From: a bacterium
GTDB lineage: Bacteria; Zhuqueibacterota; QNDG01; JAFGCO01
Reading direction: 5' to 3'
Assembly (NCBI GenBank): GCA_016932575.1
Contig: JAFGCO010000011.1
Span: forward strand, 10,851 to 74,850
DNA: 64,000 nucleotides
The notes below the pieces were generated by a model. The model did no database searches. It worked only from the letters and a program-made list of their open reading frames with translations, and was not told the origin of the DNA. The translations under genes were made by a program, and so were the position numbers. Positions 1,392-40,913 of this stretch are shown here, piece after piece (the first letter of the stretch is position 1; every line of letters starts with the position of its first letter).

Positions 1392-1653
1392 AGGTTGTCT
1401 CCTTTTGTCTTATGATCCATTATCATGTAAAGAGGTTTTTTAATGTACGTCCCAACCATATAAAAGTCAAGATAATTTAAGGAGTTAAGAAAAGAGATTC
1501 TATCAGAAAGCACGGCGCTGCCAGAGGCGCTTCCTGGATTCAGGTCAAGGTCTGATTAATTGTGATATAGCTAAAAGAATGTGAAAAGGAGCCTCGGAGA
1601 ACTGGTAACACGTAAAGAAGAGTCAGAAATTATGAATGATGAATGAAAAGAAT

Positions 1654-1812
1654 GTGGATATAAGGGTTATATGGGTAATATAGTGATATGGTGATATGGT
1701 TTTAGTGGCTTGTGTCGATGAATGAAATTGAGAAATATAAAAAAAAATAAGATTAAAAATTAAAGACCCAAGAAGGGAAATGTGGGTATAAGGGCAATAA
1801 GGGAAATAAGCG
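1654..1812. repeat. Two arrays of ~9-bp direct repeats (consensus near TATAAGGG / TATATGG), ~130 bp apart, 200-370 bp upstream of the EPS operon promoter
   Basis: Array 1: GTGGATATAAGGGTTATATGGGTAATATAGTGATATGGTGATATGG. Array 2: GTGGGTATAAGGGCAATAAGGGAAATAAGCG. An ATGAATGATGAATG direct repeat and an A-rich tract also lie in the same AT-rich intergenic region. Confidence 0.4.
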
Positions 1813-2008: not shown

Positions 2009-2018
2009 GCGATCCCAT

Positions 2019-2034
2019 TGGCATGGTAGTTGCA
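2019..2034 (+). promoter_or_regulatory. Sigma-54 (RpoN) -24/-12 promoter, TGGCAT-N5-TTGCA
   Basis: Perfect match to the consensus TGGCAY-N5-TTGCW (cccatTGGCATggtagTTGCAaatt). It sits ~55 nt upstream of the first start candidate of the 1706-aa ORF. Confidence 0.6.
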
Positions 2035-2088
2035 AATTAATTATAGTTAATTCAATAATTTGTATCGGTTTGATAGAAGAGAACACTA

Positions 2089-5000
2089 TTGAAAGGCATA
2101 TTGAGGAAATGCACAGTGAAGCTCCCCCCTGAAAGCATCGGGGAAACTTCATCTGTAAGGAATCAGTTTATTCTATTGTCTCGAAAGCACCCGCTGAGCA
2201 GATTCAAGCGGGCTTTTATTGTTATTATTCCCGTTTTGTTCCTTTTTTCTGATTGCGGCAATAAACAATCATTTCACGACAGAACCATTTGCATTGATCA
2301 AAAGCGCTTCTTCTCAGTTAGATTCGATCCGTCGTATTACTATGATGTGGATTTAAAGGTTCCTGCGCTTTGTGAAGAACTCGTTTCGAACTGGAAAGAG
2401 AGCGGGATCAATACGGTTTATGTGAAGGTCTATGATCCGCTGTACGGCGCGGTATACAAGACCCGATACATACATAATATCCAGACGGATTACGGCAGAC
2501 TGAATCTGCTCAAGTCCCTGATCAAGACCGGCCATAATCATGGGATTCAAATATTTGCGTGGATTCCGGCCTTTCAGCATAAACAGGTATGGGAGGCACA
2601 TCCGGAGTGGCGCAGCAAACAGGCGGATGAAACCGACTACCAGCCGGATGAAAACAGCTGTCATCTCTGCGTCAGGAATCCGGAATACGGAAAATGGTGG
2701 ATCGGATTTGTGGAAGATCTGCTGAAGCGGTACAGGGATCTGGATGGTGTGGATATCGCCGAACCCGTTGTCAGCTGGAAACCGGATAAGGTCTGCTATT
2801 GCCGCCATTGCCGGGAGGCTCAGAACCGAATGAGTGACAGCTATGGAACGACAAAGAAGGATGCTTTTGAACTGACCCGTTCAGCGGCACTCACATCACT
2901 CATTGAAGAGACATGCCGGCTGGTTCATTCACACGGCAAGCCGGTTTCTGTGACATCTCTCACAACTGCCTATAGCGAGGGCTCCCTTTATTCCGCCCGG
3001 GAACAACAGTCCGCTACGGGATTCGATCTGGAGGCGGTTCTTGAGCTTGAGCATAAACCCGATATCATCAATATGGAAATCCTCTGGCAGGAATGGGCCA
3101 ATTTCTGGAATGACACCACCCTGTTTCAACCGGAATGGACCAAGCAGGCTGTACGGGAAGTGATAAAACAAGTGGATAATCGCAGCAAACTGGTGATTCA
3201 CGTCGAAATGACACCTCTGGGGGATATTCAGGTTCCGGATAAAATGTTCGTCAGATCGATATACGCGGCCCTTGACGGAGGGGCTCAAGGCATTGATTTC
3301 TACGATTCGCATCAGGCGGACAACCGCGGACTTTGGCCGCGGATTAAACAGGCCCTCGGTTATACCCCGTTGAAAAAGATTCTGGTCTATCATGATCCTG
3401 ATTATTTGCAGGATGCCAGACAGCTGGAAGTGCTGCTCCGGCATTTTCGAACAGATACGGAATTGAGGCCCCTGGAAAACAGTTTTTCTCCATCCGATTT
3501 GTCGGGTACGGATTGCATTTTTTATGTGGGTAACGAATACCGTGCATCTCTGCCTGAACGGTTTATACAGGCTGCTGCCGGATTTGACGGAACCGTTTGC
3601 TGGATCAATGAAAATATTCACGCATTGAAAGATGCCGGACTGTCCGGGCTGGGTTTTCATTATCAGGGCTATGATGATACGACCCGGTATGAGATTGTTT
3701 ATCAGGGAACGTCTTTTAATAAAGATAATAATTCGCTTCATCTGATTGATGTGGATCGCCCGGATCGCTGCCATATCATGGCTTCCGCCAGATCCGGTGA
3801 AAAGGAAGTGCCATACATCGTTCGAAGCGGACTCTTTTGGTATGTGGCCGATCTGCCTTCAAACTATATGACAGAGGGCGGAAGGCATATTGTTTTTGCG
3901 GATCTGCTTCATGATATTCTGCGGGAAGACCATATCGAAAAGCATTTGGCGCTGGTCCGGATTGAAGATGTCAATCCCACGTCTCATCCGGAATATCTCA
4001 GATCTATTGCCGATTACTTACACTCTCAGGACGTTCCTTTTTCGGTGGGCCTGACTCCATTCTATCTCGATCCTTCTGAAAACACAGCCATTTCCATTTC
4101 TGATCGTCCTGATTTGACCGATGCGCTGCATTATATGGTCTCGCGGGGAGGTACTGTCATTCTGCATGGATGTACCCACCAGTATCGTGGGCAATCGACT
4201 ATTGATCATGAATTCTGGGACGGAATGAACAATCGGCCCCTTTTTGAAGATTCTGAAGTTTATGTGGAGGAACGGTTAGAGAAAGCGATCAACGAGTGTT
4301 TTAAAAATGATATCTATCCTCTGGTCTGGGAGACACCTCACTATGCCGCTTCTCAGATTGACTATCGGGCAATTAACCGGTTCTTCAGCACCTGTTATGA
4401 AAGAAGACAAACCGTGGATGTTCTGGGATCTGATCAATTGTTGCCCTTTTACATTCCCGCGCGGGCGGGTAAAGCAACGATGATTCCTGAAAACCTGGGA
4501 TATGTTCCTATAGACGATCCCTCTCCTGAAACCATTGTGCTCAACGCACAAAAAAACCTGAGGATCCGGGATGGATTCGCCAGCTTCTTTTTTCATCCTT
4601 TCGTTCCGCTGGAGTCTCTGAAACAAATCATACCCGGTATCCAGGATTTGGGATATACGTTTGCCAGTATCCGATCGATCGACAATCAGGTGAAGGCCGC
4701 TTCCCAAACCGTCATCAGCGGTCAGAACGATCTGAAAATTGATGTCAATGACCAGTATTTCCGGGAATTCTATTTGACTCAAAAAGGCAAAAAGAAACAT
4801 CAGCGAATCAGTGAAAAAAAACTGTCCGAACCCATGGAAAAATCGGTGGTTTGTCCCCAGGACTGGCTTTATGTGGCCAGCGCGCTGGATGTCAGGGATA
4901 AAAAATTTCCGGCAACCCTGCTGGCATCGTTTGACAAGGCACCCTTCGGTCTGGGACATTTCCTTCAGCCGCAGCCTCTGAAGGCGGCCAGTACTACCAT

Positions 5001-7209
5001 TGCCCCTCTTTTCATTGTCGATTCATCTGCCACAGGAAAACCGGCCAGTAGCCAATCCAGTTTAATCAATGCCTTCGAGGCTGCAGGCATCGATTATCAA
5101 ACCGTTCCGGTCCGCGAATTTCTGGACATTCCGAATCATGTCGATATGATCATTGTCCCGTTTGCTGCCGGCCGGAATCTTTCAGAACAACAGATTCTGT
5201 TTATTTTAAGGGCCCTTTCACGCGGCTTGAGAATCATTATGGAAAAAGAGACGCCTTTAAGTGAACGGATCGGGATTATGGGCATCGGCGATTCGCTCAC
5301 TGTGAGTATGGTCCGGGATGAATACTATCCGCAAGTGGATATTCAATGGAAAGAAGCGGATACGTATCGCCGTTTTGATGTGCCCATCGATTATGTCACC
5401 TATTATTCAGAAAAAAACACCGGCAATCCTCTGGTGATAGGCGGTGAATTCGGTGAGGGCATGTATCTTTACTTTGCCACGCTGTTTGATCCCACCACAT
5501 CAAAAGGGTATGGCCGATATCCGTATTACTGTGATCTTCTGCAGCGGCAATTTGACTCATGGCCTCTCGTAAAAAGAGAGTCTGCGGAGATATATTTTGA
5601 GCCGGGTGACCGGGAGGATGTAAGCATAGAAGAGCTGGTTAATCTGTGGAAAAAGAGTGGTTTCAGAACCATCTATGTTGCCGGCTGGCACAGGTATCCG
5701 GACTGGACCTATGATTATAACCAACTCATTGAGTTGGCGCATCAATACGCCATGGAGGTTTATCTCTGGTTTGAACTGCCCCATGTGAACGTCGCTTTTT
5801 GGAACGAACATCCCGAATGGCGGGAGAAAACAGCCACAGGTGAGGACGCGATCATTGAATGGCGGCATTTTATGGCGCTTAACAATCCAGCCTGTCTGAA
5901 TGCGGTCTGCTCGGAATTGTCCTATTTAATTCAAAAATATGACTGGGACGGGATAAATTTCGCCGAGCTCTACTTCAGTTCTCCCCTCGGGCCTGATCGT
6001 CCCGATCTTTTTACGCCCATGAACGCATCGATAAGAAATAGATTTTCCCTGTTATATGGATTTGATCCTGTACAGCTTTTTGATCCTGCTTCATCCTTCT
6101 ATTGGCGAAAAAACAGGGCAAAATGGGAACAGTTCCAGCGATTTCGGCAGGACTTGGTCATTGAACTCCATGATGTTATACTTTCCTTTTTACATCGGGA
6201 AATAGCCAAAAAGCAGAGCGATATGGAAATTGTGGTGACCGCTCTGGACAATATCCATGCCAGACAAACGGGGCTGGGGACAGCAATGGATACCCGGCGT
6301 TTGATTGAACTGGGCGAAAGGCTGCCCTTTACCCTTCAAATTGAAGATCCCTTCGAGTTATGGCATTTGGGACCTTCCCGATATGACCGCCTTTCCCGAA
6401 CATACAGAACATGGCTGCAGGAACCGGAGAAACTTATTTTTGATATCAATGTGGTTCCCTATCGTTCGTTTAAACTGACCATGGCCCCGACAAGACAGCC
6501 GACGGGTCTTGAATTATATCATTTTCTGAAAAGTGCCTCTCAGGATCAAAACCGTGTCGCACTTTACTCCGAGTCAAGTATTTATATGGTTGACCTGCCC
6601 TGGATCTCTTATGCTCTCGGACAATATACCGAAGAGACGTTGTCGCCGTATCGCTGGGAAATTCATACAGAAAACACAGTCACTGTGGACATGGATCCGG
6701 ATAGTCATAAAGACCTGATGGTGAACGGATCATTTTGGCCGGCGTACTTTAATGGTCGCTTGATGCTTCCCCCGGGAGATCATGAGATCGAGTCCGTTTC
6801 AGGGATCAAGGGATTTGCCAAATCCTTAAATACAACAACCCGCCTTGTGGATATCAGCGGAGAGCTAAAATCCTGCCGTCTGAATCATCAGGGGATCGAC
6901 GTGACTTATGAATCTCCGGTCCGAAATTATATCATTGTCAATGAAAAACCAAAGAAAATTATGGTGGACAATACATATTATGAGAGCTGGGTGCGAAAGG
7001 GGAAAAAAGGGTATTCTCTCACCGTTCCATCCGGAATGCATACAATAAAAATTATCACACAGAGTTCGGGCAGCCGATCTTTGAGAAACTTCAGCATTGT
7101 TTCTTCAGTCACCCTTGTTCTGATAAGCGGACTGGCAGGTTTCATTTTACTTGGGCTCTATATCACCGGCGCCTTGAGAAGACACCGTCGCAACAAGCAT
7201 TCATCCTAA
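2089..7209 (+). CDS. Large (1706 aa) membrane-anchored polysaccharide-modifying protein. Domains in order: N-terminal TM/lipoprotein-like signal, glycoside-hydrolase-like TIM barrel (GHL10/DUF187-like), DUF2334 deacetylase-like domain, unknown domain, second GHL-like barrel, beta-sandwich, C-terminal TM.
   Basis: There is no in-frame ATG near the N-terminus. The start is TTG at 2089 (weak SD) or GTG at 2116 (GAGGA 8 nt upstream). Hydrophobic segment KRAFIVIIPVLFLFSDCG. GHL-like motifs GINTVYVKVYD, GHNHGIQIFAWIPAF, WEAHPEW, CYCRHC. DUF2334-like segment DVPFSVGLTPFYLDPSEN...TVILHGCTHQY. Second barrel GFRTIYVAGWHRYPDW...HPEWREK. C-terminal TM VTLVLISGLAGFILLGLYITGALRRHRRNK. Domain assignments are from memory of the families, not a search. 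Confidence 0.6.
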   Translation: MKGILRKCTVKLPPESIGETSSVRNQFILLSRKHPLSRFKRAFIVIIPVLFLFSDCGNKQSFHDRTICIDQKRFFSVRFDPSYYYDVDLKVPALCEELVSNWKESGINTVYVKVYDPLYGAVYKTRYIHNIQTDYGRLNLLKSLIKTGHNHGIQIFAWIPAFQHKQVWEAHPEWRSKQADETDYQPDENSCHLCVRNPEYGKWWIGFVEDLLKRYRDLDGVDIAEPVVSWKPDKVCYCRHCREAQNRMSDSYGTTKKDAFELTRSAALTSLIEETCRLVHSHGKPVSVTSLTTAYSEGSLYSAREQQSATGFDLEAVLELEHKPDIINMEILWQEWANFWNDTTLFQPEWTKQAVREVIKQVDNRSKLVIHVEMTPLGDIQVPDKMFVRSIYAALDGGAQGIDFYDSHQADNRGLWPRIKQALGYTPLKKILVYHDPDYLQDARQLEVLLRHFRTDTELRPLENSFSPSDLSGTDCIFYVGNEYRASLPERFIQAAAGFDGTVCWINENIHALKDAGLSGLGFHYQGYDDTTRYEIVYQGTSFNKDNNSLHLIDVDRPDRCHIMASARSGEKEVPYIVRSGLFWYVADLPSNYMTEGGRHIVFADLLHDILREDHIEKHLALVRIEDVNPTSHPEYLRSIADYLHSQDVPFSVGLTPFYLDPSENTAISISDRPDLTDALHYMVSRGGTVILHGCTHQYRGQSTIDHEFWDGMNNRPLFEDSEVYVEERLEKAINECFKNDIYPLVWETPHYAASQIDYRAINRFFSTCYERRQTVDVLGSDQLLPFYIPARAGKATMIPENLGYVPIDDPSPETIVLNAQKNLRIRDGFASFFFHPFVPLESLKQIIPGIQDLGYTFASIRSIDNQVKAASQTVISGQNDLKIDVNDQYFREFYLTQKGKKKHQRISEKKLSEPMEKSVVCPQDWLYVASALDVRDKKFPATLLASFDKAPFGLGHFLQPQPLKAASTTIAPLFIVDSSATGKPASSQSSLINAFEAAGIDYQTVPVREFLDIPNHVDMIIVPFAAGRNLSEQQILFILRALSRGLRIIMEKETPLSERIGIMGIGDSLTVSMVRDEYYPQVDIQWKEADTYRRFDVPIDYVTYYSEKNTGNPLVIGGEFGEGMYLYFATLFDPTTSKGYGRYPYYCDLLQRQFDSWPLVKRESAEIYFEPGDREDVSIEELVNLWKKSGFRTIYVAGWHRYPDWTYDYNQLIELAHQYAMEVYLWFELPHVNVAFWNEHPEWREKTATGEDAIIEWRHFMALNNPACLNAVCSELSYLIQKYDWDGINFAELYFSSPLGPDRPDLFTPMNASIRNRFSLLYGFDPVQLFDPASSFYWRKNRAKWEQFQRFRQDLVIELHDVILSFLHREIAKKQSDMEIVVTALDNIHARQTGLGTAMDTRRLIELGERLPFTLQIEDPFELWHLGPSRYDRLSRTYRTWLQEPEKLIFDINVVPYRSFKLTMAPTRQPTGLELYHFLKSASQDQNRVALYSESSIYMVDLPWISYALGQYTEETLSPYRWEIHTENTVTVDMDPDSHKDLMVNGSFWPAYFNGRLMLPPGDHEIESVSGIKGFAKSLNTTTRLVDISGELKSCRLNHQGIDVTYESPVRNYIIVNEKPKKIMVDNTYYESWVRKGKKGYSLTVPSGMHTIKIITQSSGSRSLRNFSIVSSVTLVLISGLAGFILLGLYITGALRRHRRNKHSS

Positions 7210-7228
7210 TTCTTAAGGAATCGCTCCC

Positions 7229-8512
7229 ATGCCTTTCGAATCCATTGTGATCAACATTTTATTCCTGTTTTCTGTCTCTGTCATCTGGGTGATGATTCTC
7301 TATCAGCTCGTCCTGACCTTTTACGGGCACAGACACCGCCGGGCCATGGAAAAACGACTGGCAGAAGCCGACTGGCCGGATGCGTCATTGCCTCCGGTAT
7401 CCATATTGGTTCCTGCGAGGAACGAAGAAGTTGTGATTGCCCGGACTCTGGATAAAATACTGGCACTGGATTATCCGGCTGAAAAAATGGAAGTGATTGT
7501 GATCAACGACGGTTCAACCGACAAGACCCAGGCCATCCTTGAACAGTACAAGAAAAAAGACAGCCGGGTAAAGCCCCTTCAGTTACCACCGGCAGAGACC
7601 GGCAGAGGGAAAGCCCGTGCCCTGAATGCGGGCTTCCGGATAACCCGGTATGATTATATCGCCGTTTATGATGCAGACAACAATCCGGAAGCTTCCTCTT
7701 TAAAAACACTGGTTCGGGAACTGATGGAAGACACCGCGGTGGGTGCAGTGATCGGTAAATTCAGAACCCTGAATTGGAAGAGGAATATTTTAACACGATT
7801 CATTAATATCGAGACCTTGAGTTTTCAGTGGATTCTTCAGGCAGGCCGGTACAGGGCATTCCAGGTTTCAATATTGCCGGGCACCAATTTTGTGATTCGC
7901 AAAGCAGTTGTTACCGCCTGTGGAGGATGGGATGAAGCAGCGATAACGGAAGATGCGGAACTGAGCGTACGCATTTATCAGATGGGCTGGAAAATTAAAT
8001 TCGTGCCCCATGCGGTCACATGGGAACAGGAACCGGAGAAGTGGGAAGTGTGGATCCGGCAACGGACACGCTGGGTCAGAGGGAATAATTACGTCATACA
8101 AAAATTTATTAAACCGGCATTGGGCCTGAAGAATCGGTTTCTCTTTACGGAATTTCTGTATCTCTTTATTCTCTACTATTTACTGCTGGGCGCCATTGTG
8201 ACCTCCCATCTTCTCTTTATTCTCTGCGGACTCGGAATCCTCAATGTCGATGTGCCCGGGCCCTATATGGCCGTGTGGATACTGGCCTTTATTTTGTATC
8301 TCATGGAAGTGGTGCTTGCTTTGTCTTACGAAGACGAGGATAAACCGCTGAATATCCTCATTACTGCGGTCATGTACTTCACCTATTGTCAGATGTGGAT
8401 CTATGTGGTATTTCGGGGATTTTATCTGGACCTTTTTAAAAAACGGGTCGGAATCTGGGATAAAACAGAACGTCATAATCAGGATGATCTCCTGACTCAG
8501 GATGGAGATTAG
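7229..8512 (+). CDS. Family-2 glycosyltransferase, processive synthase type (PgaC/IcaA/NodC-like), integral membrane
   Basis: SD TAAGGAA 8 nt upstream. N-terminal TM. GT2 core VSILVPARNEEVVIARTLDKILALDYP...VIVINDGSTD. DxD motif YDADN. QxxRW motif QRTRWVRG. C-terminal TM helices. It starts 19 nt after the upstream stop. Confidence 0.8.
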   Translation: MPFESIVINILFLFSVSVIWVMILYQLVLTFYGHRHRRAMEKRLAEADWPDASLPPVSILVPARNEEVVIARTLDKILALDYPAEKMEVIVINDGSTDKTQAILEQYKKKDSRVKPLQLPPAETGRGKARALNAGFRITRYDYIAVYDADNNPEASSLKTLVRELMEDTAVGAVIGKFRTLNWKRNILTRFINIETLSFQWILQAGRYRAFQVSILPGTNFVIRKAVVTACGGWDEAAITEDAELSVRIYQMGWKIKFVPHAVTWEQEPEKWEVWIRQRTRWVRGNNYVIQKFIKPALGLKNRFLFTEFLYLFILYYLLLGAIVTSHLLFILCGLGILNVDVPGPYMAVWILAFILYLMEVVLALSYEDEDKPLNILITAVMYFTYCQMWIYVVFRGFYLDLFKKRVGIWDKTERHNQDDLLTQDGD

Positions 8513-8514
8513 CC

Positions 8515-9387
8515 TTGCATGGTAAATTCTGGCATATTGCGGCAGGAATGTTTCTGGCTGTGAGCAGCTTAATGGGCAGTGAGCCGGATTCATCGGGGAT
8601 TGAATCAAATCCCGATGAAGGAGGATCCGCTGAAATTCATTGGAGCATTTGGGGAGAATTTTATGATGAGTCCATGATTTTTGAGAGTGAAGAAGACAAT
8701 GTGTTCTCCAATTCGCATATCAGGCAGGGGCTGAAAATCAGACATTTGCCGGTCATCAATCTGTTCCAGACGTATATCCTGCTGCGGTACGGACGGGATC
8801 TTCACAGGGATTTTTGGAACAATAAAACCGAGGTCGGCCTGGGGCTCAGGACCCGGTTCTTTAAAAAAATCTTTTTCGCGCCATATGCTGAATATATCTG
8901 CGGATTCTACAACAAGATCCCGGAGGGTCGTCCGCAACCCCAAGCCCGACAGTATACTGATTTAAGAGGAGGATTCATATTCTGGTATGGATGGGACACA
9001 TGGTATTCCCCTGCCTCGCTGATCACGTTTCCCAGACATTTTATCGGTGAGGTATACAGCGAATTGAACTATTTCAGAAAGGACCGTGACAATATCATAT
9101 CGTATACCCACATGAAGGCAGGCATTCGCGCAGTCCGCATTTGGAAATGCGCTTTTGTCGGTTACGGAGCCATGTATATCATGAAGGACAGAAATCGGGA
9201 TTTTTGGAACAATGTCGCTGAAATAGGGCCCGGTTTCTGGATAAAGCCCCACCCTGACGTGGATTTAAAATTTTTTGTGGAATGGCTTCGGGGCTATTAT
9301 TATGGGATTGAGGGCAGGGATGATAATCCCAATCCTCAAATATTCAGTGATCGAAGAATCGGCATTCTGTTATGGATTGGATGGTAA
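8515..9387 (+). CDS. Putative outer-membrane beta-barrel protein (EPS export porin candidate), internally duplicated
   Basis: TTG start 2 nt after the GT2 stop. Signal-like N-terminus MHGKFWHIAAGMFLAVSSLMG. Aromatic-rich alternating pattern. Two copies of the RDFWNN motif ~120 aa apart. C-terminus ...LLWIGW ends in an aromatic residue. Confidence 0.45.
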   Translation: MHGKFWHIAAGMFLAVSSLMGSEPDSSGIESNPDEGGSAEIHWSIWGEFYDESMIFESEEDNVFSNSHIRQGLKIRHLPVINLFQTYILLRYGRDLHRDFWNNKTEVGLGLRTRFFKKIFFAPYAEYICGFYNKIPEGRPQPQARQYTDLRGGFIFWYGWDTWYSPASLITFPRHFIGEVYSELNYFRKDRDNIISYTHMKAGIRAVRIWKCAFVGYGAMYIMKDRNRDFWNNVAEIGPGFWIKPHPDVDLKFFVEWLRGYYYGIEGRDDNPNPQIFSDRRIGILLWIGW

Positions 9388-9433
9388 TATTTTTAACCGA
9401 TCAATCGACTTATTTTGGTAGGAGCAATTTATT

Positions 9434-11290
9434 ATGAAAAAGAGTCTCATGGGGATTGTATTTTATGTCCTGTGCTTTTGGAGCCCGGGAAATTCCCTTG
9501 TTTTTTCCGAAGATATTGCTGCCCTGATCTGGAAGCTGTCTGCCGATCTGACTGTGACATCTATTGCGCCGACCAGTGATATTGACGGGGACAGTATACC
9601 GGACGTCTTTGTGGGATCGGCCGATCATCTGGTCTATTGCCTTTCCGGGAGCGTTATTCGTCAGGGCGAGATACTCTGGTCCTGGAATTTCGGTGCGCCT
9701 GTATGGACAGTGGCCTCTATTCCGGATATTAACAGAGACGGGGCGGATGACTGCCTGGTTGGGTGTGCTGACAATACCATATACTGCATGTCCGGAAATC
9801 CGGTTCAGGGCCTTTCGGAAATTTTGTGGTCGTACGGTGTGGACGGCGATATTTTTACGATAGCGGTTCTGAACGATCTGAATGATGATGGAATCGATGA
9901 CTGTGTGATGGGGACCAATGATGATCAGGTTTGCTGTCTTGACGGGGCATGGGGTCAGGTGCTCTGGTCCTACCGGGATCCGGCAGTTGGCGCCATCAAG
10001 TCGGTGAGTGCCATCTCCGATGTCAACAATGACGGACTGGATGACTGCCTGGCAGGCGGCGAGAATGACAAGGTGGTCTGTCTGTCCGGGGGCAGTACCG
10101 GAAATGGAGATCTGATCTGGTATTGCAATACCCAGAGCACCGTTCTTTCTGTCAACACTATTGAGGATGTGAATGAGGATAACAAGCCGGATTGCCTGGC
10201 AGGCGGAGAGGATAATTTTGTGTATTGTATATCCGGTAGCGGCTCGGGAAAAAATGATCCCCTCTGGCGCTGTGATATGGGCTCAACTGTAAAATCCGTT
10301 TCTTCTATTGCTGATGTCAATCAGGATGGCATATGGGATTGTCTGGCGGGCAGTGAGAGTTGGGACGATAATATTTATTGTATTTCCGGAGTCACTGGTC
10401 ACGTTCTGTGGTCAAATAAACTCCCCAGCAGTGTTCTCAGTGTGTGCTCCATTGATGATGTCAATGACAGCGGGTTTCATGATTGCATTGCAGGGTGTGA
10501 AAATGACCGGATCTATTGTCTTGAAGGAGGACAGGGAACAGCAATCTGGTCTTACGAGACAGGCGGTGCAGTGAACTGCGTGGTGACAGTGGCCGACCTG
10601 AACGGAAACCTGATTGATGACGTGTTAGGCGGGTCCACGGACAGCTATGTTTACGCTTTAGACGGGGGGGATATTTTAATCGAGGTTGTCAGTCCGCCGA
10701 TTGTTCCCACAGGACCATCCGGGGAAGTATCAGAAGGCAAAACCGGCAACCCAATGGTGCTCGTCACAGGCGGATCGGCCAGCAGTTTTCATCATCCGGT
10801 GGAATACCGGTTTGACTGGGGAGATGAAACGGTTTCGGTTTGGGGAGATTCGAGCCGGAGTCATATCTGGGAAGAGGCTGGCTCATATGAGGTCAGAGCG
10901 CAGGCCAGGTGTGCTCTTCATCCAACGGTACTCAGCGAGTGGTCTGATAATGTAATCGTGAAAATTGTTGAAAAGACACTTGTGAACCGCCATCCAGCAG
11001 AAGATGTGCCCATTCATTTCTGCCTTTATCAGAATTATCCGAATCCCTTTAATTTAATGACCACGATAGAATATCAGGTTCCAAAAGCCTGTCAGGTGAC
11101 CATTAATGTATACAGTATCCATAGTCACCTGATCGCATGCATTGTTGATGGATTTTTCGAGGCCGGGAATTATCGAATTAACTGGGAGGGGAGAACCTCT
11201 TCCGGCACCATCGCATCATCGGGCTGCTATATTTACTGCATGAAAGCCGGAGAATATATCGCGGTCAAAGACATGCTTCTGCTGAAATGA
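9434..11290 (+). CDS. Secreted FG-GAP/integrin-like beta-propeller protein (about 8 blades with Ca-binding DxNxDGxxD loops) carrying a T9SS C-terminal sorting domain
   Basis: Signal peptide. Eight repeats of the form DINRDGADDCLVGCADNTIYCMSG. C-terminal ...YQNYPNPFNLMTTIEYQVP...VYSIHSHLIACIVDGFFEAGNYRINWEG...LLLK matches the Por_Secre_tail / T9SS type-A sorting domain. Confidence 0.7.
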   Translation: MKKSLMGIVFYVLCFWSPGNSLVFSEDIAALIWKLSADLTVTSIAPTSDIDGDSIPDVFVGSADHLVYCLSGSVIRQGEILWSWNFGAPVWTVASIPDINRDGADDCLVGCADNTIYCMSGNPVQGLSEILWSYGVDGDIFTIAVLNDLNDDGIDDCVMGTNDDQVCCLDGAWGQVLWSYRDPAVGAIKSVSAISDVNNDGLDDCLAGGENDKVVCLSGGSTGNGDLIWYCNTQSTVLSVNTIEDVNEDNKPDCLAGGEDNFVYCISGSGSGKNDPLWRCDMGSTVKSVSSIADVNQDGIWDCLAGSESWDDNIYCISGVTGHVLWSNKLPSSVLSVCSIDDVNDSGFHDCIAGCENDRIYCLEGGQGTAIWSYETGGAVNCVVTVADLNGNLIDDVLGGSTDSYVYALDGGDILIEVVSPPIVPTGPSGEVSEGKTGNPMVLVTGGSASSFHHPVEYRFDWGDETVSVWGDSSRSHIWEEAGSYEVRAQARCALHPTVLSEWSDNVIVKIVEKTLVNRHPAEDVPIHFCLYQNYPNPFNLMTTIEYQVPKACQVTINVYSIHSHLIACIVDGFFEAGNYRINWEGRTSSGTIASSGCYIYCMKAGEYIAVKDMLLLK

Positions 11291-11326
11291 TTGAAGAGAA
11301 AAACATTTTGGAAGGCTTTGGGAATA

Positions 11327-12445
11327 ATGAGCGGCAATAACCTCTTCAAAATCATGGTCGTCATGGGAACACGGCCGGAGGCCATTAAACTGGCGCCGGT
11401 TGTGCTTGAACTGAAAAAGCAGTCCGATATTCAGCCGGTTATCGTGGCCACTGCACAGCATCGGGAGATGCTGGATCAGGTGCTGGCCCATTTCCTGATT
11501 GCGCCTGATATGGATCTTGATCTCATGATTCCCGACCAGACCCTGTTTCATCTTACAGGAGCGGCCATTCATGGATTCGAAGCAGTTTTCCAAAAAATCA
11601 GGCCCGATTTGATTCTGGTACAGGGAGATACAACCACATCTTTCATCGGCGCACTGGCCGGATTTTATAAAAAAATCAGGGTCGGCCATGTGGAGGCAGG
11701 ACTCAGAACCGGCAACAAGTATTCTCCCTTTCCTGAAGAGATCAATCGAAAATTGGTTTCTGTACTTGCTGATTACCATTTTGCCCCCACGCCGGGCAAC
11801 CGAAAAAACCTGATCGCCGAAGGAGCCGCGCCCGAAAACATTATTGTCACCGGAAATACGGTGATCGATGCATTGCACCTGACCGTGGACGACAATTTCA
11901 CCTCAGAGATGCTCTCCTCACGGGATTATGACCGTTTTATCCTGATCACCGCCCACAGAAGAGAAAATTTCGGCAAACCCCTGGAAAACATCTGCGAGGC
12001 TGTCCGGCAAATGGCCATGCATCATTCAGACTGGATCTTTATGTATCCGGTTCATCTCAACAAAAATGTTCAGGAACCTGTCCGTCGTATACTCAGCGGT
12101 ATGCACAATGTCCATTTGGCCGATCCCATGGATTATTACACCTTTGCCAATTATATGGCCGCTTCCGATCTCATTCTGACAGATTCCGGAGGCATACAGG
12201 AGGAAGCGCCCAGTCTTGCAAAACCGGTTTTGGTTTTAAGAGATGAAACCGAAAGGCCAGAAGCAGTCGAAGCCGGTACAGTGAAAATCATTGGAACGAA
12301 CCTAAAGACGATTATTTCAGAGACGGAATATCTTCTGAAGAACAAAGAGGCATATGAACAGATGACCAGGGCTCATAATCCATACGGCGACGGTAAAGCA
12401 TCGGAAAGAATCGTGACGTTTATTCGAAATACAATCATGTCATAG
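11327..12445 (+). CDS. wecB: UDP-N-acetylglucosamine 2-epimerase (non-hydrolysing)
   Basis: KIMVVMGTRPEAIKLAPVV, GDTTTSF and HVEAGLRT are classical WecB/MnaA motifs. The track start 11291 is TTG. ATG 11327 (MSGNN...) has GGAAGG upstream. Confidence 0.85.
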   Translation: MSGNNLFKIMVVMGTRPEAIKLAPVVLELKKQSDIQPVIVATAQHREMLDQVLAHFLIAPDMDLDLMIPDQTLFHLTGAAIHGFEAVFQKIRPDLILVQGDTTTSFIGALAGFYKKIRVGHVEAGLRTGNKYSPFPEEINRKLVSVLADYHFAPTPGNRKNLIAEGAAPENIIVTGNTVIDALHLTVDDNFTSEMLSSRDYDRFILITAHRRENFGKPLENICEAVRQMAMHHSDWIFMYPVHLNKNVQEPVRRILSGMHNVHLADPMDYYTFANYMAASDLILTDSGGIQEEAPSLAKPVLVLRDETERPEAVEAGTVKIIGTNLKTIISETEYLLKNKEAYEQMTRAHNPYGDGKASERIVTFIRNTIMS

Positions 12446-12492: not shown

Positions 12493-14421
12493 TTATATTT
12501 TTGTTTTCATGGCGGTTCGGATTTTTTGCAGTAATGCGACCATCGTATAGGGCTTTTCCAAAAGGGGATACGCCTTCTTTTGAATGTCAGACCATTTGGA
12601 GCTGTATTCAGGATAGCCGCTGGTCAATAAAATGTGAATATCCGGCTTTTTAGCCAATAATGTTTCAACAAGTTCAACCCCGCTTTCACCGGACAATTCC
12701 ACATCACTGAAAACCAGATCAAAACTACCATTTTCTTTATCGAAAACTTCCATGGCCTCTTTGACATTGGCGGCCGCAAAGGTGATAAAATTGTTTTTGA
12801 TTAAAGCTTTTTCCATAAAGGTTCTGACTTTTTTATCATCTTCAACAAAAAGAATACGTTCACCGTTTCCCTTAAGAGACTGGATGGGCAGTTCTTTATT
12901 TGTTTCAATATCCGGATGTTTCGGAACTGCCTCAAAATAGATATTGAAGGTGGTTCCCGTTGCCGGTTTGCTTTTCACTTCAATCCATCCGTTGTGTTCC
13001 TTCACAATACCAAATATCACGGCCAATCCCAGACCTGTCCCCTTATCATGCTTTTTGGTGGTGAAAAAAGGCTCAAAAATACGTTCCAGGGTTTTTTTAT
13101 GCATGCCAACACCCGTGTCCGTTATTGAGAGGCAGACAAAATGACCGGGTCTGGCTTCGGTACTTAGACTGCTTTGCTTCTCAGAGATGGTCACATGCTT
13201 GGTTTCAATGGTCAGCGTGCCGCCTTCGGGCATTGCGTCCCGGGCATTCATGGACATATTCAGGAGAATTTGTTCCAGAGTGCCTTTATCTGCTTTGACG
13301 GAGCACAGATCCTGAAGCAGGGATTCTTTGATCTTAATATGTTCTCCAATCAATCGGCGAATCATATTGGTCATATTTTTAATCAGGACGTTTAAATCGA
13401 GAACCTCAAATGACATGGGCTTGTTGCAACTGAAGACCAACAGTTTGCGTGTTAAATCGGCAGCCTGATCCGCAGAATCCTGAATTTGCTGAATGAATTG
13501 ATAAAGGTTGGACTGCTGTGCCAGGTCCGGAAGGATCAGTTCTGTTGTCCCCCGAATGGCAGTTAAAATATTGTTGAAATCGTGTGCGACACCTCCTGCC
13601 AGGGCTCCTATAGCATCCATCTTGCAAGCCTGTCTGAGCTGCTCTTCCATTTGTTTTTTTTCTGTGATGTTCCGAAAAACCAATACGACACCATTGAGTT
13701 TGCCGCGATCATCCCTGATGGGTGCTGCATTGTCATCAATCGGTATTTTTTTGCCGTTTTTCGCGATGAGCAATGTATTGTTGGTCAGGGAAACGGGCTT
13801 CCCTGTATTCAGCACCGTTCCGACCGGGTCGTTCACCCACTCTGTTTCGTTATCGTTGGTAATATGAAATACCATATTTATGTTTTTACCTATGCCTTCT
13901 TTCTGTGACCATCCGGTCAGTTTTTCTGCACCGGGATTCATAGAAACAATGGATCCTTTCCTGTCTGTTGTGATTACCGCATCGCCGATACAATTTAAGG
14001 TGGTGGAAAGCCATTCTTCATTTGCTTTGAGCTTCTTTTCCATCTCATGCTTATAGAGAGAGATTTCAATGGATGAACTTACCTCTCTCTCATCCAGAGG
14101 CTTCAGTATGTACCCGTAAGGTTCAGCTCGTTTTGCTCTTGTTAAAGTCTGTTTGTCTGAATAGGCTGTTAAAAAAACAACCGGGATATCATAATGCTCA
14201 TGGATATATTCAGCAGCATCGAGCCCTCCCATTTCATCACCCAGCATGATATCCATTAATACCAGATCAGGCCGGTTGGATTGAGTTGATTGAATGGCAG
14301 CTTCTTTTGACCTGACTGAATCGGTGACATGATAACCCAGGTCCTCCAGTCTTTCCTGGATCTCCAGGGCAATAATGTGCTCATCTTCAACAACCAGTAT
14401 TTTTTTCTTATCGGTATTCAT
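12493..14421 (-). CDS. Hybrid sensor histidine kinase/response regulator (REC-PAS-HisKA-HATPase-REC)
   Basis: N-terminal receiver ILVVEDEHIIALEI...DLVLMDIML. PAS. H-box HDFNNILTAIRG. HATPase GTGLGLA. C-terminal receiver ERILFVEDDKKVR...DLVFSDVEL. SD AAGAGG. Confidence 0.85.
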   Translation of the reverse strand: MNTDKKKILVVEDEHIIALEIQERLEDLGYHVTDSVRSKEAAIQSTQSNRPDLVLMDIMLGDEMGGLDAAEYIHEHYDIPVVFLTAYSDKQTLTRAKRAEPYGYILKPLDEREVSSSIEISLYKHEMEKKLKANEEWLSTTLNCIGDAVITTDRKGSIVSMNPGAEKLTGWSQKEGIGKNINMVFHITNDNETEWVNDPVGTVLNTGKPVSLTNNTLLIAKNGKKIPIDDNAAPIRDDRGKLNGVVLVFRNITEKKQMEEQLRQACKMDAIGALAGGVAHDFNNILTAIRGTTELILPDLAQQSNLYQFIQQIQDSADQAADLTRKLLVFSCNKPMSFEVLDLNVLIKNMTNMIRRLIGEHIKIKESLLQDLCSVKADKGTLEQILLNMSMNARDAMPEGGTLTIETKHVTISEKQSSLSTEARPGHFVCLSITDTGVGMHKKTLERIFEPFFTTKKHDKGTGLGLAVIFGIVKEHNGWIEVKSKPATGTTFNIYFEAVPKHPDIETNKELPIQSLKGNGERILFVEDDKKVRTFMEKALIKNNFITFAAANVKEAMEVFDKENGSFDLVFSDVELSGESGVELVETLLAKKPDIHILLTSGYPEYSSKWSDIQKKAYPLLEKPYTMVALLQKIRTAMKTKI

Positions 14422-14443
14422 GATTCGCCTCTTTATTTATAGA

Positions 14444-15865
14444 TCATATTTCGAAAATAATTTTATATTCTGTTCCATTGTTTCGGTTGATTTCCATCAT
14501 GCCATCCAGCTGTTTAATTAAAGTATTGACAAGCCGCAATCCCAGGGTGTTCACATTTTTCATATCAATTTCATCAGGCATTCCAATGCCATTGTCCTTT
14601 ACATCAATAATGGCCCGGTCGCTGTCGATAGTATCTATTTTAATCTTGATCTCCCCTTTGCGGGCATTCGGGAAGGCATGTTTCAGGGAGTTTGATATCA
14701 GTTCATTGATGATCAATCCACAGGGAATGGCCTTGTCAATATTGATTTCGAAATTACCGATTTCCTTATGAATAGAGATATTTAATGAACTAACACGATA
14801 TGACTTGATTAAATAGGATGTCAGACTGCTTATATATTTGGAAAAATCAATATGAACAATATCCTCTGACTGGTACAGTTTTTCATGAATTAATGCCATC
14901 GCTTTAATTCGGTTTTGGCTTTCTTTGAACATTTCTAAAGCTTCATTATTTTTGATTTTCTTGGACTGGAGAAAAAGCAGACTGGAAATAACCTGCAGGT
15001 TGTTTTTAACACGATGGTGAATTTCTTTTAGAAGAATTTCCTTTTCTTCCAGGGAAGCCTTTATTTTTTTCTCTGCACTTTTACGCTGAATCAGCTCTTC
15101 GTGCAATTGCCTTGCCCGGTTCTCAAGTTCATGGCTGGCATTTTGAAGCGCAATATTTTGATTCTGAATTTGTGTCAGCATTTCATTAAACTGCTCAGTG
15201 AAAAAACCCAATTCATCTTCACTTGATTTTTGTGCACGGACTGAATAATCCTGATTCAGGGAAATTTTTTGGGCAACCTTTGCAAGGTGTAAGATGGGTT
15301 CAGAGACAACGCGCTGTAACCGGGTTGTCATCAGGAAACTGACTAAAATCGCCACGAGCAATACCAAAATCACAATAATAAAATTTCGCCTGAGCCTGGC
15401 TTTAATTTCTTCCAGACTTGATTGGATATATACCTTTCCTATTTTTTCCTGATCCAGCATAATATCCCTGTATATAACAAAGTGGTCTTTGTAAAAATAA
15501 GCGCCGTTCTCCTTTGGCATGGGCGGCAAAGACTGAATATCCACACCTTCAATTTTGTACTTTGCAAAAATTTTATCGTTCTTATCATAGATGGCGGCAA
15601 AAAGAATATATTTTTCTGCTTTTAATAAAATGGACAGGGTTTCCTTGGCATCATCTTCATTATCAAAAATTAGTGCTGCAGTGCAGTGATTTCCAATAAT
15701 CTCCGCGAGTGTATCCATCTTATGTTTAATGACTTCCCGATAATTGAGCTGATCTGAAGTGATTAAGGCAGCACAAGCAATAAGAAGCGCAACACTGCTG
15801 CTGAACATTGTGATTGCTGTCAGCTTCTGTTTGATAAAAAGCTTATGGAAAAGCTGCTTTTTCAT
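14444..15865 (-). CDS. Sensor histidine kinase, HisKA_2 family, with a periplasmic sensor domain flanked by two TM helices
   Basis: TM1, a ~125-aa periplasmic domain, TM2, a HAMP-like segment and a coiled coil. HisKA_2 H-box [17 protein letters not shown]. HATPase_c follows. It lies 22 nt upstream of the hybrid kinase. Confidence 0.8.
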
Positions 15866-15871
15866 TTCATT

Positions 15872-16444
15872 CTATTCAAGTGAAGGTTCTGGAATATCTG
15901 CCATTTTCAACAGTTTTGTACTCATCTTTAAACCGGACTGTTTAACAGCTTCGCTGTTGATTTCAAAGCGTATCTTTTTTTTCTTGATAATAAAATTAAT
16001 CATTCCGCCATCTTTGGAAAAATTGGTTTCATCACCCACTGTAAGAATACTGTTATTTTTAATTTTACTGAATATTTGAGACCGCCGGTCTCTGTTGTCC
16101 ACACCAATGAACAGGATATGGCAAGACGACAAATCTTCCAGATTCTGATAGCGCCTGATTCTGAACTCTCGATTTTTTATTTGTTTCCCCTCAATGGTTT
16201 TTTCCAGATCAATGCCATAAGGATCACTGCCGATAATACCAATCACAAACGGTGAATCCGGATTATTGAATGATTCTTCGGGCCAATCCACAAATCTTGC
16301 AAAATTATACAGATATTTGGCCTTGATCTGATACTCTGTCGGAATGACAGTAAATCCCATTTGTGAATAACTATTTGATCCCCCAAGAATTATGATAAAT
16401 ACGGTAAAACATCGGATTGAAATGATGTTAATTTTAGGTAACAT
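15872..16444 (-). CDS. YfiR-like periplasmic protein (DUF4154)
   Basis: Signal peptide from the ATG at 16444 (MLPKINIISIRCFTVFIIILGG); the track start 16477 is TTG. It carries the DUF4154 hallmark YLYNFARFVDWP. It is the first gene of a minus-strand operon with the two kinases. Confidence 0.65.
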   Translation of the reverse strand: MLPKINIISIRCFTVFIIILGGSNSYSQMGFTVIPTEYQIKAKYLYNFARFVDWPEESFNNPDSPFVIGIIGSDPYGIDLEKTIEGKQIKNREFRIRRYQNLEDLSSCHILFIGVDNRDRRSQIFSKIKNNSILTVGDETNFSKDGGMINFIIKKKKIRFEINSEAVKQSGLKMSTKLLKMADIPEPSLE

Positions 16445-16771
16445 ATGTTCTATTTTTGAAATATTTTTCAATTCCAATCAACCCATAAAACATTAATAAA
16501 CAAGATATTATTTCTAAAAATCAATAATAAATCACAATGTTTTATGAAAATCTCTTTTTCATTATGGAATCATGATCCTTTTTATCTCAATTTCATATCC
16601 AGGGGGATTGTTCAGCTGCAGTCGCAGAATGAAGGGATGATAAATCCAGATTTTCCAATAAGGTTACACAGTAAACAAATTTAATCAATGGTGAAGGAGA
16701 AGTTTTATGCTCATCCTTTTCCCCGGTTCCGATATCCTGTTTTTATTAAAACCTGTATTTTTTATGAAATG

Positions 16772-26056: not shown

Positions 26057-26355
26057 GGCATTCTCCTGCAATAATAACAGTTTTTTAAGATATGAATATT
26101 TTTTACCGGTTTCAAGCAAAAGGTAACAACCGGTTGGCCAATCCTGTAAATTTTATTTGGAATAATCACTAATGCCTGATTTAAAATATACTGGTTTTAA
26201 AAAAATAAATTCTTATCTTTTATAAAAAGGCGGCTTTGTTGATTATATGGTTTTCAAAACAAATAAAAGGCGATGTTTTTAAAGCAATAAGAGCAAACCC
26301 GGATAAGCTTTCGCAATGCCAATAAATTTACATCGATTCAAGAGGAGGTTCATAA

Positions 26356-33712: not shown

Positions 33713-33731
33713 AAAAAGGGGAGAATCTGGC

Positions 33732-35873: not shown

Positions 35874-35901
35874 CAATTCCAGTAATAAAAGGCAATCTAT
35901 C

Positions 35902-36144
35902 ATGAATATAAAAACGATCGCAGAATTCTTTTTATCGATTCTATGCCCGGGTTTTCTTTTCAATCTTCAGACCCGGGAGATCGACAGTAAAATTCTGCTG
36001 AATTTCACTTTAACGCATCATATCCATACGAATATCGATCTGTTTGTGAATACACGCAACGTATTGGGTAATAACTCCCAGGAATTTGGATTTACCGACA
36101 ATACAAACCGGCTCTGTCTGTCAGGCCTGCGTTTTGAATATTAA
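35902..36144 (+). pseudogene. Duplicated C-terminal fragment of a TonB-dependent receptor (80 codons)
   Basis: ...VNTRNVLGNNSQEFGFTDNTNRLCLSGLRFEY aligns with the C-terminus of the adjacent receptor (...KNFITDQREFGFAESTGLSIFGGFRW). It ends in the canonical terminal aromatic residue. It is in a different frame from the full gene. Confidence 0.35.
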
Positions 36145-36169
36145 TAACGGCTCAATCCTGGAGGCTATG

Positions 36170-36694: not shown

Positions 36695-36710
36695 GGGGTA
36701 AGAATATACC

Positions 36711-40047: not shown

Positions 40048-40062
40048 ACAGGCCTGAGGGAA

Positions 40063-40899: not shown

Positions 40900-40913
40900 G
40901 TAAATCGATCACC

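Follow-up and report, generated by a model that had tools for sequence, protein, structure and literature searches.

Gram-negative bacteria build their biofilm matrix mainly with synthase-dependent systems. The few types on record include those for cellulose, poly-N-acetylglucosamine (PNAG), alginate and Pel, with Nfr as a recent addition. In the Nfr system of Escherichia coli, the glycosyltransferase family 2 (GT2) synthase NfrB makes a WecB-dependent polymer of N-acetylmannosamine (ManNAc) (PMC8669469, PMC8669472). The Pel modifier PelA combines, in order, a hydrolase barrel, a mixed α/β domain, a deacetylase and a β-rich domain (PMC12022489). Among Firmicutes, Bacillus subtilis needs YdaLMN to produce an exopolysaccharide that is structurally undefined and controlled by YdaK and cyclic di-GMP (c-di-GMP) (PMC5422440, PMC9800504); it reacts with α-Gal/GalNAc lectins (PMC13274460). 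The synthase PssC of Listeria shares ~30% identity with PNAG synthases and produces a chain of β-1,4-ManNAc that carries α-1,6-Gal branches (PMC4125290, PMC13492145). Here, we describe a five-gene operon from an uncultured member of the Zhuqueibacterota, found in a stretch of 64,000 nucleotides (the window; GenBank assembly GCA_016932575.1, contig JAFGCO010000011.1, positions 10,851 to 74,850). The operon encodes a giant protein, a GT2 synthase, a small putative outer-membrane barrel (ORF3), a propeller protein and WecB. We interpret it as a diderm synthase-dependent system for exopolysaccharide biosynthesis, modification and export, built around a YdaL-GT2 core, and give this reading a probability of about 0.68.

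The features of this general class are present: a GT2 with synthase motifs and multiple transmembrane (TM) segments, a PelA/PgaB-like modifier and a relative of an exporter module, with no flippase, polymerase or ABC genes. A previous sequence-only reading of the window had likewise reported no Wzx/Wzy or ABC exporter, and we saw none either in the operon or among its neighbours, which were scanned to position 43 kb. It had also described five tightly packed genes, which open reading frame (ORF) calling on the window bears out: all five lie on the + strand between 2089 and 12445, separated by 19, 2, 46 and 0 nt. Every motif quoted in that reading was found, with GINTVYVKVYD, WEAHPEW and HPEWREK at aa 106, 168 and 1241 of the giant, and DAD and QRTRW at aa 148 and 278 of the GT2.

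Evidence that these genes act together comes from their linkage in other genomes. The giant is 100% identical to an NCBI entry, 'DUF2334 domain-containing protein [bacterium]', on a 172-kb contig of a metagenome-assembled genome (MAG), and it belongs to a family of 93 clusters, named YdaL/DUF2334 by the source databases. Eighty clusters are full-length (1615-1775 aa, 33-82% identity), and short-form relatives of ~1320 aa lack the first of two glycoside hydrolase (GH)-like barrels (barrel 1). Scanning one genome per GTDB species gave 47 loci (L-numbers below denote individual loci), 46 of them from MAGs of Fibrobacterota, KSB1, Sumerlaeota, Planctomycetota, 'Deltaproteobacteria' and 'Cytophagia'. 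The sole non-MAG locus is from a cultured Bdellovibrio strain, and Bdellovibrio-group loci hold only a standalone barrel-1 homologue. We scored synteny by tblastn of the window proteins; for ORF3, the propeller and WecB, we used the 22 loci that extend 5.5 kb or more downstream. In 31/31 loci, less than 300 bp separates the giant gene from the start of the GT2 gene downstream of it. ORF3 was present in 20, the propeller in 21 and WecB, within ±10 kb, in 16 of the 22 loci, with all three in 15. These linked genes are kept across phyla at 34-77% identity; the exact five-gene order is retained in a Fibrobacterota MAG at 35% identity and is shuffled in distant lineages (L033, L035, L039, L040). 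Because the order is rearranged in distant lineages yet the genes stay linked, the pattern argues for functional coupling rather than mere inheritance. The adjacency of the C-terminal module to the GT2 survives even where the giant is short (L062) or split (L063).

The same data bear on whether the locus could be a chance juxtaposition, a MAG misassembly or an artefactual 1706-aa fusion. The window comes from a MAG, and the giant ORF begins with TTG and has no ATG among its first 80 codons; NCBI places the start at GTG 2116, giving 1697 aa, where we use TTG 2089. In L063 (7869-13117), the DUF2334 part (379 aa) and the C-terminal half (930 aa) are two ORFs that overlap by 8 nt and precede the GT2 gene, which could be a genuine split or an assembly frameshift. 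However, the 80 independent full-length clusters come from many assemblies and phyla, align continuously with conserved inter-domain regions, and yield AlphaFold2 (AF2) models that are confident across the domain boundaries. With the same gene order also found on contigs of up to 5.2 Mb, we consider an artefact effectively refuted.

The GT2 had been described as a processive-type synthase, and its features agree: the motifs DGS94, DAD148, TED240 and QRTRW278 are accompanied by one N-terminal and ~4 C-terminal TM segments. Pfam places the protein in GT2 families, and its best NCBIfam match is TIGR03937 (PgaC_IcaA, 1.2e-47), at 162.8 bits against a cut-off of 422.3. By BLAST, it aligned with the GT2 of a Salibacterium cassette (42% identity over 422 aa, 344 bits) and with that of a Priestia cassette (34% over 421 aa, 266 bits), both described below, whereas E. 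coli PgaC matched over the catalytic core only (30% over 239 aa, 102 bits). The comparison with E. coli NfrB was not significant (26 bits over 89-95 aa). No PilZ, GGDEF or MshEN domain was found by Pfam in the five operon proteins or their immediate neighbours. Membership in the Nfr system was rejected on the score to NfrB and on the length of the window GT2, which has 427 aa and no MshEN domain.

The PgaC_IcaA match raises the alternative of a divergent PNAG system, in which the GT2 is a PgaC/IcaA orthologue, the giant a super-PgaB, ORF3 a reduced PgaA and WecB a bystander. Consistent with this, both barrels of the giant are structurally closest to the GH153 domains of PgaB and BpsB, the pairing of a deacetylase-like domain with a hydrolase mirrors PgaB, and the operon neighbours a YfiR/HmsC-CHASE8 module, a sensor type that controls Hms/PNAG in Yersinia. 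A PNAG assignment nevertheless failed on the synthase, the small membrane partner and the exporter. The GT2 misses the PgaC/IcaA equivalog cut-off and scores far higher with the yda-type GT2 than with PgaC; gaps of 0-46 nt leave no room for a PgaD/IcaD-like subunit, and BLAST gave no match to E. coli PgaD. Pfam returned no match to carbohydrate esterase family 4 (CE4; PF01522) in the operon proteins, and ORF3 lacks the tetratricopeptide repeats (TPRs) of a TPR-plus-barrel PgaA, with which its hhalign comparison was not significant (E 0.27). In addition, WecB is linked in 16/22 loci and also occurs inside Firmicute and Streptomyces cassettes, and Listeria PssC, for all its similarity to PNAG synthases, makes a ManNAc polymer (PMC4125290). 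We therefore regard a PNAG system as unlikely.

The giant was modelled with AF2 on family alignments in two parts, aa 31-905 (predicted local distance difference test score, pLDDT, 82; predicted TM-score, pTM, 0.81) and aa 870-1706 (pLDDT 88, pTM 0.80), which gave the domain series listed in Table 1. Barrel 1 matched GHL6 (6e-13) and GHL10 (2e-10) in Pfam at aa 89-224, carries a CxCxxC motif (aa 236-241), and had Cwp19 as its top structural match in the fold search. The α/β domain that follows corresponds to the N-terminal part of YdaL. The DUF2334 deacetylase-like domain named in the sequence-only reading was confirmed by Pfam (PF10096, 7e-49, aa 621-848), and its relatives are called 'polysaccharide deacetylase family protein' at NCBI. 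After a β-sandwich, a linker at aa ~938-957 is disordered or of low confidence (pLDDT <50 at model residues 69-88). It leads to a second α/β domain, for which PF08532 (Glyco_hydro_42M) matches short-form homologues and Foldseek gives partial matches to GH42 and STM3548. The second barrel (barrel 2) is also real, as seen in the predicted structure, in fold searches (Foldseek TMt 0.70 to the PgaB C-terminal domain, 0.63 to Cwp19 and 0.63 to BpsB) and in its profile-profile homology to barrel 1 (hhalign 99.1%, E 4.5e-19); its Pfam match to GHL10 is weak and below threshold (E 2.5e-4). Of the earlier description of two GHL10/GH114-like barrels, the likeness to GHL10 thus stands, together with Cwp19 and GH153, and that to GH114 specifically was not supported.

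The proposal that the giant has a TM segment at both ends held for one of them. Its C-terminal TM is modelled as a long helix, is kept in 91/93 homologues and leads into a basic tail, RRHRRNKHSS. At the N-terminus, the hydrophobic segment AFIVIIPVLFLF, with SDC after it, is of signal-peptide length and too short for a TM helix in a 19-residue hydropathy scan, with an h-region of ~13 residues ahead of Cys56. A hydrophobic region is found at this end in 84/93 homologues and a lipobox-like xxxC in about 21, so the N-terminus is probably a signal peptide or lipoprotein signal peptide.

Foldseek aligned PelA (PDB 9cgy) to ~900 columns of the N-terminal half of the giant (E 1e-14) and also to 800 columns of the C-terminal half (E 4e-10), at an overall TM-score of 0.29-0.30, meaning that the domains match and their packing does not. 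We found no sequence-family membership linking the giant to PelA. For the N-terminal half, hhalign with E. coli PgaB was not significant (E 0.07) and aligned no more than a motif where GH153 begins, and PDB sequence searches with profiles of the giant and of ORF3 returned nothing significant. Membership in the Pel system was rejected, with a GT2 as the only glycosyltransferase in the operon and no GT4, PelC-like or TPR gene there.

Residue conservation, counted in the 93-member alignment (80 full-length members for barrel 1), differs between the two barrels. In barrel 1, 80/80 members have Glu225 in DIAEP, at the end of β4, and Glu373 in HVEMT, at the end of β7; with strand positions read from the AF2 model, this predicted pair is the classical clan GH-A arrangement. 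Barrel 2 has the β4 Glu (Glu1293) in 62/93 members, and its β7 position, 1454, is Asn in 64/93, with Glu never among the top residues. Barrel 1 thus retains its Glu/Glu pair and barrel 2 lacks the canonical β7 nucleophile, so that two hydrolases are not established. Ten DUF2334 residues are invariant in 93/93 members (E626, D627, H693, H697, E708, D711, H751, R827, D828 and H836), and we take I-E626-D627, H693-GCT-H697 and FFF-H836 to resemble CE4 motifs 1, 2 and 5.

Since Cwp19, the top structural match of barrel 1, is a peptidoglycan hydrolase, the giant could instead be a degradative, Cwp19-like remodeller of the cell wall, with the GT2, WecB and the other proteins making an envelope glycoconjugate, such as a ManNAc polymer resembling enterobacterial common antigen (ECA) or teichoic acid, or a glycolipid. 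WecB also feeds ECA and teichoic linkage units, and homologues of barrel 1 (in Bdellovibrio) and of the C-terminal half (in Paenibacillus, Clostridia and Acidobacteriota) occur without a GT2. This explanation is disfavoured by the absolute adjacency of the giant to a multi-TM processive GT2 with QxxRW and TED motifs (31/31), by co-occurrence with ORF3 as a relative of an exporter-type module, by the domain order that the giant shares with PelA, a biosynthetic modifier, and by an operon free of lipid-carrier genes (Wzx/Wzy, WecA-type). We judge it decidedly improbable. The giant did not turn out to be a known single-function enzyme, nor the GT2 a dolichol-phosphate/ManNAc transferase unrelated to polymer synthesis, and a full-text literature search on DUF2334 returned unrelated work only.

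Parts of the giant also occur on their own. Loci L043-L048 (Bdellovibrio/Pseudobdellovibrio, including the cultured Bdellovibrio sp. HCB2-146) encode standalone ~380-aa homologues of barrel 1, with 28-32% identity to giant aa 67-410 (e.g. L045:10010-11152). There is no GT2 or DUF2334 gene nearby, the neighbours being MFS, ABC-F and NAD-binding epimerase-like genes, and these homologues offer a tractable entry to the biochemistry of the barrel family. Standalone proteins of 620-730 aa that match the α/β-barrel 2-β-sandwich region (E 1e-115 to 1e-188) were found in Paenibacillus, Clostridia ('stalk domain-containing'), Acidobacteriota and others, mostly without a Pfam domain and in unrelated contexts (L054-L056); they form a putative glycoside-hydrolase or glycan-binding family.

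ORF3 has a signal peptide, 18% aromatic residues, 12-14 amphipathic β segments and a β-signal-like C-terminus (…GILLWIGW). It is internally duplicated, with two ~125-aa halves (29% identity, E 1e-17) that each carry RDFWNN and close with …FW·GW, and it has no Pfam family and no TPR. An exhaustive phmmer search with a single-sequence query yielded 197 relatives, many of them 400-1070 aa long and matching ORF3 at their extreme C-terminus; all ten of the longer proteins that were tested are TPR-repeat proteins. Because these TPR proteins, with a PgaA/BcsC/PelB/NfrA-like layout, share its module, we read ORF3 as a TPR-less, duplicated member of this exporter-module family and as a putative outer-membrane barrel, which supports the earlier description of a small barrel in the outer membrane. 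An ORF3 orthologue in L035 had a weak match to PF13283 (NfrA_C), 24 residues long and scoring 21.2 bits where the cut-off is 25, and ORF3 itself showed no significant hhalign match to NfrA (E 0.03, probability 1.7%). TPR proteins of 540-1070 aa whose C-terminal ~130-250 residues are homologous to ORF3 are presumably outer-membrane exopolysaccharide exporters, with a barrel domain that has no Pfam model. In Fibrobacterota, the ORF3 orthologues (L021:16335-17606 and L022:16645-17931) contain a ~90-residue helical, coiled-coil-like insertion between the duplicated halves, and the propellers of these two loci lack the PKD domain and the C-terminal sorting part.

The fourth gene had been read as an FG-GAP propeller with a sorting domain for the type IX secretion system (T9SS). 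The propeller is clear, with eight FG-GAP/PQQ-like blades, DxNxDGxxDC loops, a PKD domain and a C-terminal FlgD_ig/T9SS type-A-like domain that contains the motif …NYPNPFN…. As a sorting domain, this last part remains below the TIGR04183 cut-off (15.1 bits against 23), and it matches the PorU C-terminus at 24.8 bits (E 3.7e-6). A neighbouring amidohydrolase (21422-23401) carries a T9SS type A domain that passes TIGR04183 at 30.3 bits, from which it follows that the organism uses T9SS sorting. The assignment of the fifth gene as WecB, the non-hydrolysing UDP-GlcNAc 2-epimerase that makes UDP-ManNAc, is secure (Epimerase_2, 2e-118; TIGR00236 equivalog, 485.5 bits against a cut-off of 210). The polymer most likely consists of an N-acetyl-hexosamine, probably N-acetylmannosamine.

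Comparison with Firmicutes, whose YdaL homologues were reached via a match on a Bacillus plasmid, places the core of the operon. By BLAST, giant aa 431-900 aligned to the whole of YdaL from Priestia (E 3e-47, YdaL 32-530) and from Salibacterium (E 3e-44). The Priestia koreensis cassette (L058) consists of GH8, YdaL, a 254-aa gene, GT2 and a 337-aa gene, and that of Salibacterium salarium (L059) of YdaL, GT2, WecB and GH8, with a WecB 47% identical to the one in the window. We also considered whether the C-terminal half of the giant corresponds to YdaN. The idea was dropped, though not refuted, after hhalign against the last gene of the Priestia cassette gave nothing and standalone homologues of this half were found in contexts unrelated to GT2 or DUF2334.

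More divergent arrangements were seen as well. A plasmid of Streptomyces sp. NBC_01237 (L052, 3034-10047) carries GH16, wecB, GT2 and, in divergent orientation, a gene for a 615-aa DUF2334 protein. The GT2s beside DUF2334 on this plasmid and on one from Bacillus tropicus (L053) were rejected as orthologues, as they belong to another subfamily (28-30% identity to the window GT2, 32-33% to each other). Because the Streptomyces GT2 is of another subfamily, DUF2334 and WecB pair with more than one type of synthase. In a B. cereus group chromosome (L057), a 549-aa YdaL homologue that is common throughout this group adjoins an SLT transglycosylase and TatD and has no GT2 neighbour, so DUF2334 alone does not define the system and also works outside synthase cassettes.

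We propose a working model that builds on the gene identities, folds, residue conservation and linkage observed here, and from these we infer substrate, activities, localisation and interactions. WecB converts UDP-GlcNAc to UDP-ManNAc in the cytoplasm and would thereby supply the donor for the polymer. Judging from its motifs, topology and family, the GT2 would polymerise and translocate an N-acetyl-hexosamine chain, most likely ManNAc-based, at the inner membrane. The giant, tethered beside the synthase by its C-terminal TM and possibly by an N-terminal lipid, would receive the chain in the periplasm, where, in the manner of PelA and PgaB, DUF2334 may partially de-N-acetylate it and barrel 1 may cleave or trim it. 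The module of α/β domain, barrel 2, β-sandwich and TM at the C-terminus, whose coding sequence always lies immediately before the synthase gene, could handle or bind the chain next to the synthase, analogous to BcsB or PgaD. ORF3 would export the polymer across the outer membrane, as its homology to the module of TPR proteins suggests. Least securely, the propeller might be secreted, probably via the T9SS, and bind, anchor or process the polymer at the surface. Expression is probably under YfiR/CHASE8 two-component control, and the operon contains no c-di-GMP receptor.

Several points weigh against this interpretation. In 6/22 loci, no WecB gene lies within ±10 kb, and the giant, or parts of it, and the GT2 are all that L001, L062 and L063 hold. 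For DUF2334, no profile or fold match provided a link to CE4, and barrel 2, lacking the β7 Glu, may be non-catalytic or use another mechanism. For the C-terminal half, we detected neither homology to the final gene of the Priestia cassette nor a BcsB match in Pfam, and its standalone homologues sit in unrelated gene contexts; it could be another hydrolase rather than a partner of the synthase. The barrel nature of ORF3 is drawn from sequence features and family architecture, and the tie to B. subtilis YdaM/YdaN and Listeria Pss from source annotation (COG/NCBI 'YdaL') and cassette content.

Taken together, the same evidence allows a bolder and more doubtful reading, which we offer tentatively: among diderm machines for synthase-dependent exopolysaccharides, the locus might represent a fifth or sixth kind, so far overlooked and specific for ManNAc/ManN, with a giant scaffold, a minimal porin and a propeller anchor. 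In such a machine, a single polypeptide of 1,700 aa, held at the synthase by its C-terminal helix, would span the periplasm and take the place of the soluble modifier (PelA/PgaB) as well as of the TPR/BcsB scaffolds. The giant would pass the chain to a duplicated porin, which would be derived from TPR-barrel exporters by loss of the TPRs. Barrel 2, its nucleophile lost, would be a lectin-like module that guides the chain, and no enzyme. Delivered by the T9SS, the propeller would have the dedicated task of anchoring the polymer at the surface and, if so, would link the T9SS to matrix assembly.

As a synthase-dependent system, the locus would extend the chemically undefined Yda family of Bacillus to diderms of several uncultured phyla. 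The conserved link to WecB suggests ManNAc-based polymers as the product of the entire family, and for the Yda polysaccharide of B. subtilis this prediction is testable. Three protein families gain hypotheses, namely DUF2334 as a de-N-acetylase, the GHL10/GH153-like barrel and the duplicated TPR-less porin, and enzymes that cleave or deacetylate matrix are practical anti-biofilm reagents.

The coordinates of the operon, the domains of the giant and the flanking regulatory features are collected in Table 1.

Table 1. Features of the exopolysaccharide operon and its surroundings, in window coordinates; residue numbers refer to the giant protein.
Feature	Position	Residues (aa)	Strand	Basis
Sigma-70-like promoter candidate, TTGGCA-18-TATAGT	2018..2047		+	Consensus scan, 10/12 matches
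Giant, putative periplasmic modification/scaffold protein	2089..7209		+	ORF, 1706 aa from TTG 2089
Signal peptide, probably lipoprotein type	2176..2256	~30-56	+	…FKRAFIVIIPVLFLFSD-C56
GH barrel 1, (β/α)8, Cwp19/GHL10/PgaB-GH153 type	2308..3363	~74-425	+	
α/β (flavodoxin/GH42-trimerisation-like) domain + β-sheet	3376..3858	~430-590	+	AF2; Foldseek GH42 two-domain matches
DUF2334 deacetylase-like domain	3886..4683	~600-865	+	PF10096
β-sandwich	4702..4893	~872-935	+	AF2 C-terminal-half model, strands 4-64
Second α/β (GATase1/GH42M-like) domain	4996..5478	~970-1130	+	AF2
GH barrel 2, paralogue of barrel 1	5566..6618	~1160-1510	+	AF2, Foldseek, hhalign
C-terminal β-sandwich	6631..7068	~1515-1660	+	AF2, strands 645-787
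C-terminal TM anchor	7087..7176	1667-1696	+	Hydropathy 2.41 over 19 residues
Processive GT2 synthase	7229..8512		+	ORF, 427 aa
ORF3, putative outer-membrane export barrel	8515..9387		+	ORF, 290 aa
FG-GAP/PQQ-like propeller	9434..11290		+	ORF, 618 aa
WecB	11291..12445		+	ORF, 384 aa
Convergent sensor cluster: YfiR/HmsC-like (DUF4154), CHASE8-HAMP-HisKA_2 kinase, response regulator (RR)-PAS-histidine kinase-RR hybrid kinase	12493..16477		-	Pfam

The operon is preceded by a 700-nt AT-rich leader (G+C 39.6% in 1001-2000). The promoter candidate at the end of this leader, ~40 nt upstream of the giant gene, is a consensus match only, and promoter and terminator scans performed at chance level. No Rfam family, including riboswitches such as those for c-di-GMP, was found in 1300-2300. 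The leader also holds a 30-nt direct repeat (AATGTGGrTATAAGGG…; 1651-1680 and 1779-1808, 83% identical, 128 nt apart) and several shorter repeats, which may be regulator-binding sites. Further upstream, a divergent ORF on the - strand (1-1390) runs off the window and encodes a membrane transporter-like protein, by eye MFS/GPH-like with a large soluble β-rich (LamG/concanavalin-like) insertion.

Downstream, the convergent sensor cluster lies beside the operon only in its closest relatives (L003, L005 and L024; 51-79% identity) and is a candidate regulator of the operon by two-component control. CHASE8/YfiR modules are most familiar from fusions with diguanylate cyclases (YfiN/HmsD) in the control of Pel, Psl and PNAG, whereas here the sensor is coupled to a kinase, not a cyclase. 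A second YfiR/HmsC-like gene (36086-36694) lies between a TonB-dependent receptor and two methyl-accepting chemotaxis proteins (33672-42995, + strand), followed by a CheR/CheA/CheW chemotaxis-type cluster, again with a non-cyclase output. A GH3 β-glycosidase is encoded at 23945-26119.

Set beside the described systems, the operon shares parts with several. Both barrels of the giant match PgaB/BpsB GH153 and Cwp19 structurally, but in PgaB the deacetylase comes first, so that the order is reversed, and it is a CE4 domain there and DUF2334 here; PgaABCD also has PgaD and an exporter with TPRs, both lacking in the operon. PelA (GH166 and CE21) has the same domain order as giant aa ~70-935 and is likewise a periplasmic dual-activity modifier. 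Unlike the giant, which falls into the Pfam families GHL6/GHL10 and DUF2334 and is membrane-anchored with a second α/β-barrel-β module, PelA belongs to other families, is soluble and docks on the PelB TPRs, and the Pel synthase is a GT4 (PelF) with PelDEG. NfrA/NfrB/YbcH provide the precedent of a GT2-dependent ManNAc polymer that needs WecB and acts as the receptor glycan of phage N4, with an outer-membrane part made of TPRs and a C-terminal barrel and a synthase that bears an MshEN c-di-GMP domain at its C-terminus. Cwp19 of Clostridioides difficile (GHL10 family; PDB 5oq2) shares the fold of the giant's barrels, but it is a cell-wall-anchored surface protein of a monoderm, and neither a synthase nor a deacetylase or exporter goes with it.

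In chemical terms, a WecB-linked GT2 of this kind has its best precedent in the Pss system of Listeria monocytogenes (pssA-E, PssZ), which is likened here by description: it is synthase-dependent and has a PgaC-like GT2. It differs in having the BcsB-like PssD, the GGDEF receptor PssE and the GH126/GH8-like PssZ, and Pfam detects no BcsB, GGDEF, GH8 or GH126 domain in the window operon. The yda and pss operons are presumably homologous to each other. The closest relatives are the Firmicute cassettes of the B. subtilis ydaJKLMN type, with a YdaL that is homologous over its whole length to part of the giant, a GT2 of the same subfamily, WecB inside the Salibacterium cassette and a glycoside hydrolase that accompanies the synthase. 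In contrast to these, the operon has YdaL fused between two GHL10/GH153-like barrels with a TM anchor at the end, and by Pfam it lacks the GH8 YdaJ (no PF01270) and the degenerate-GGDEF receptor YdaK, with no BcsB-like subunit detected; the hydrolase role of YdaJ is presumably taken over by the GHL barrels. The operon adds the ORF3 export module, a secreted propeller and a diderm envelope. The sequence-only reading did not recognise the architecture as that of a described system; its core has a precedent, as the DUF2334 segment is a complete YdaL and the GT2 groups with Firmicute cassettes. Because this YdaL-GT2(-WecB) core is shared with Firmicute Yda-type cassettes, the system is not categorically new. 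What appears to be undescribed is the fusion into one protein of ~1,700 aa, the duplicated export module without TPRs, and the conservation of a propeller in diderm phyla.

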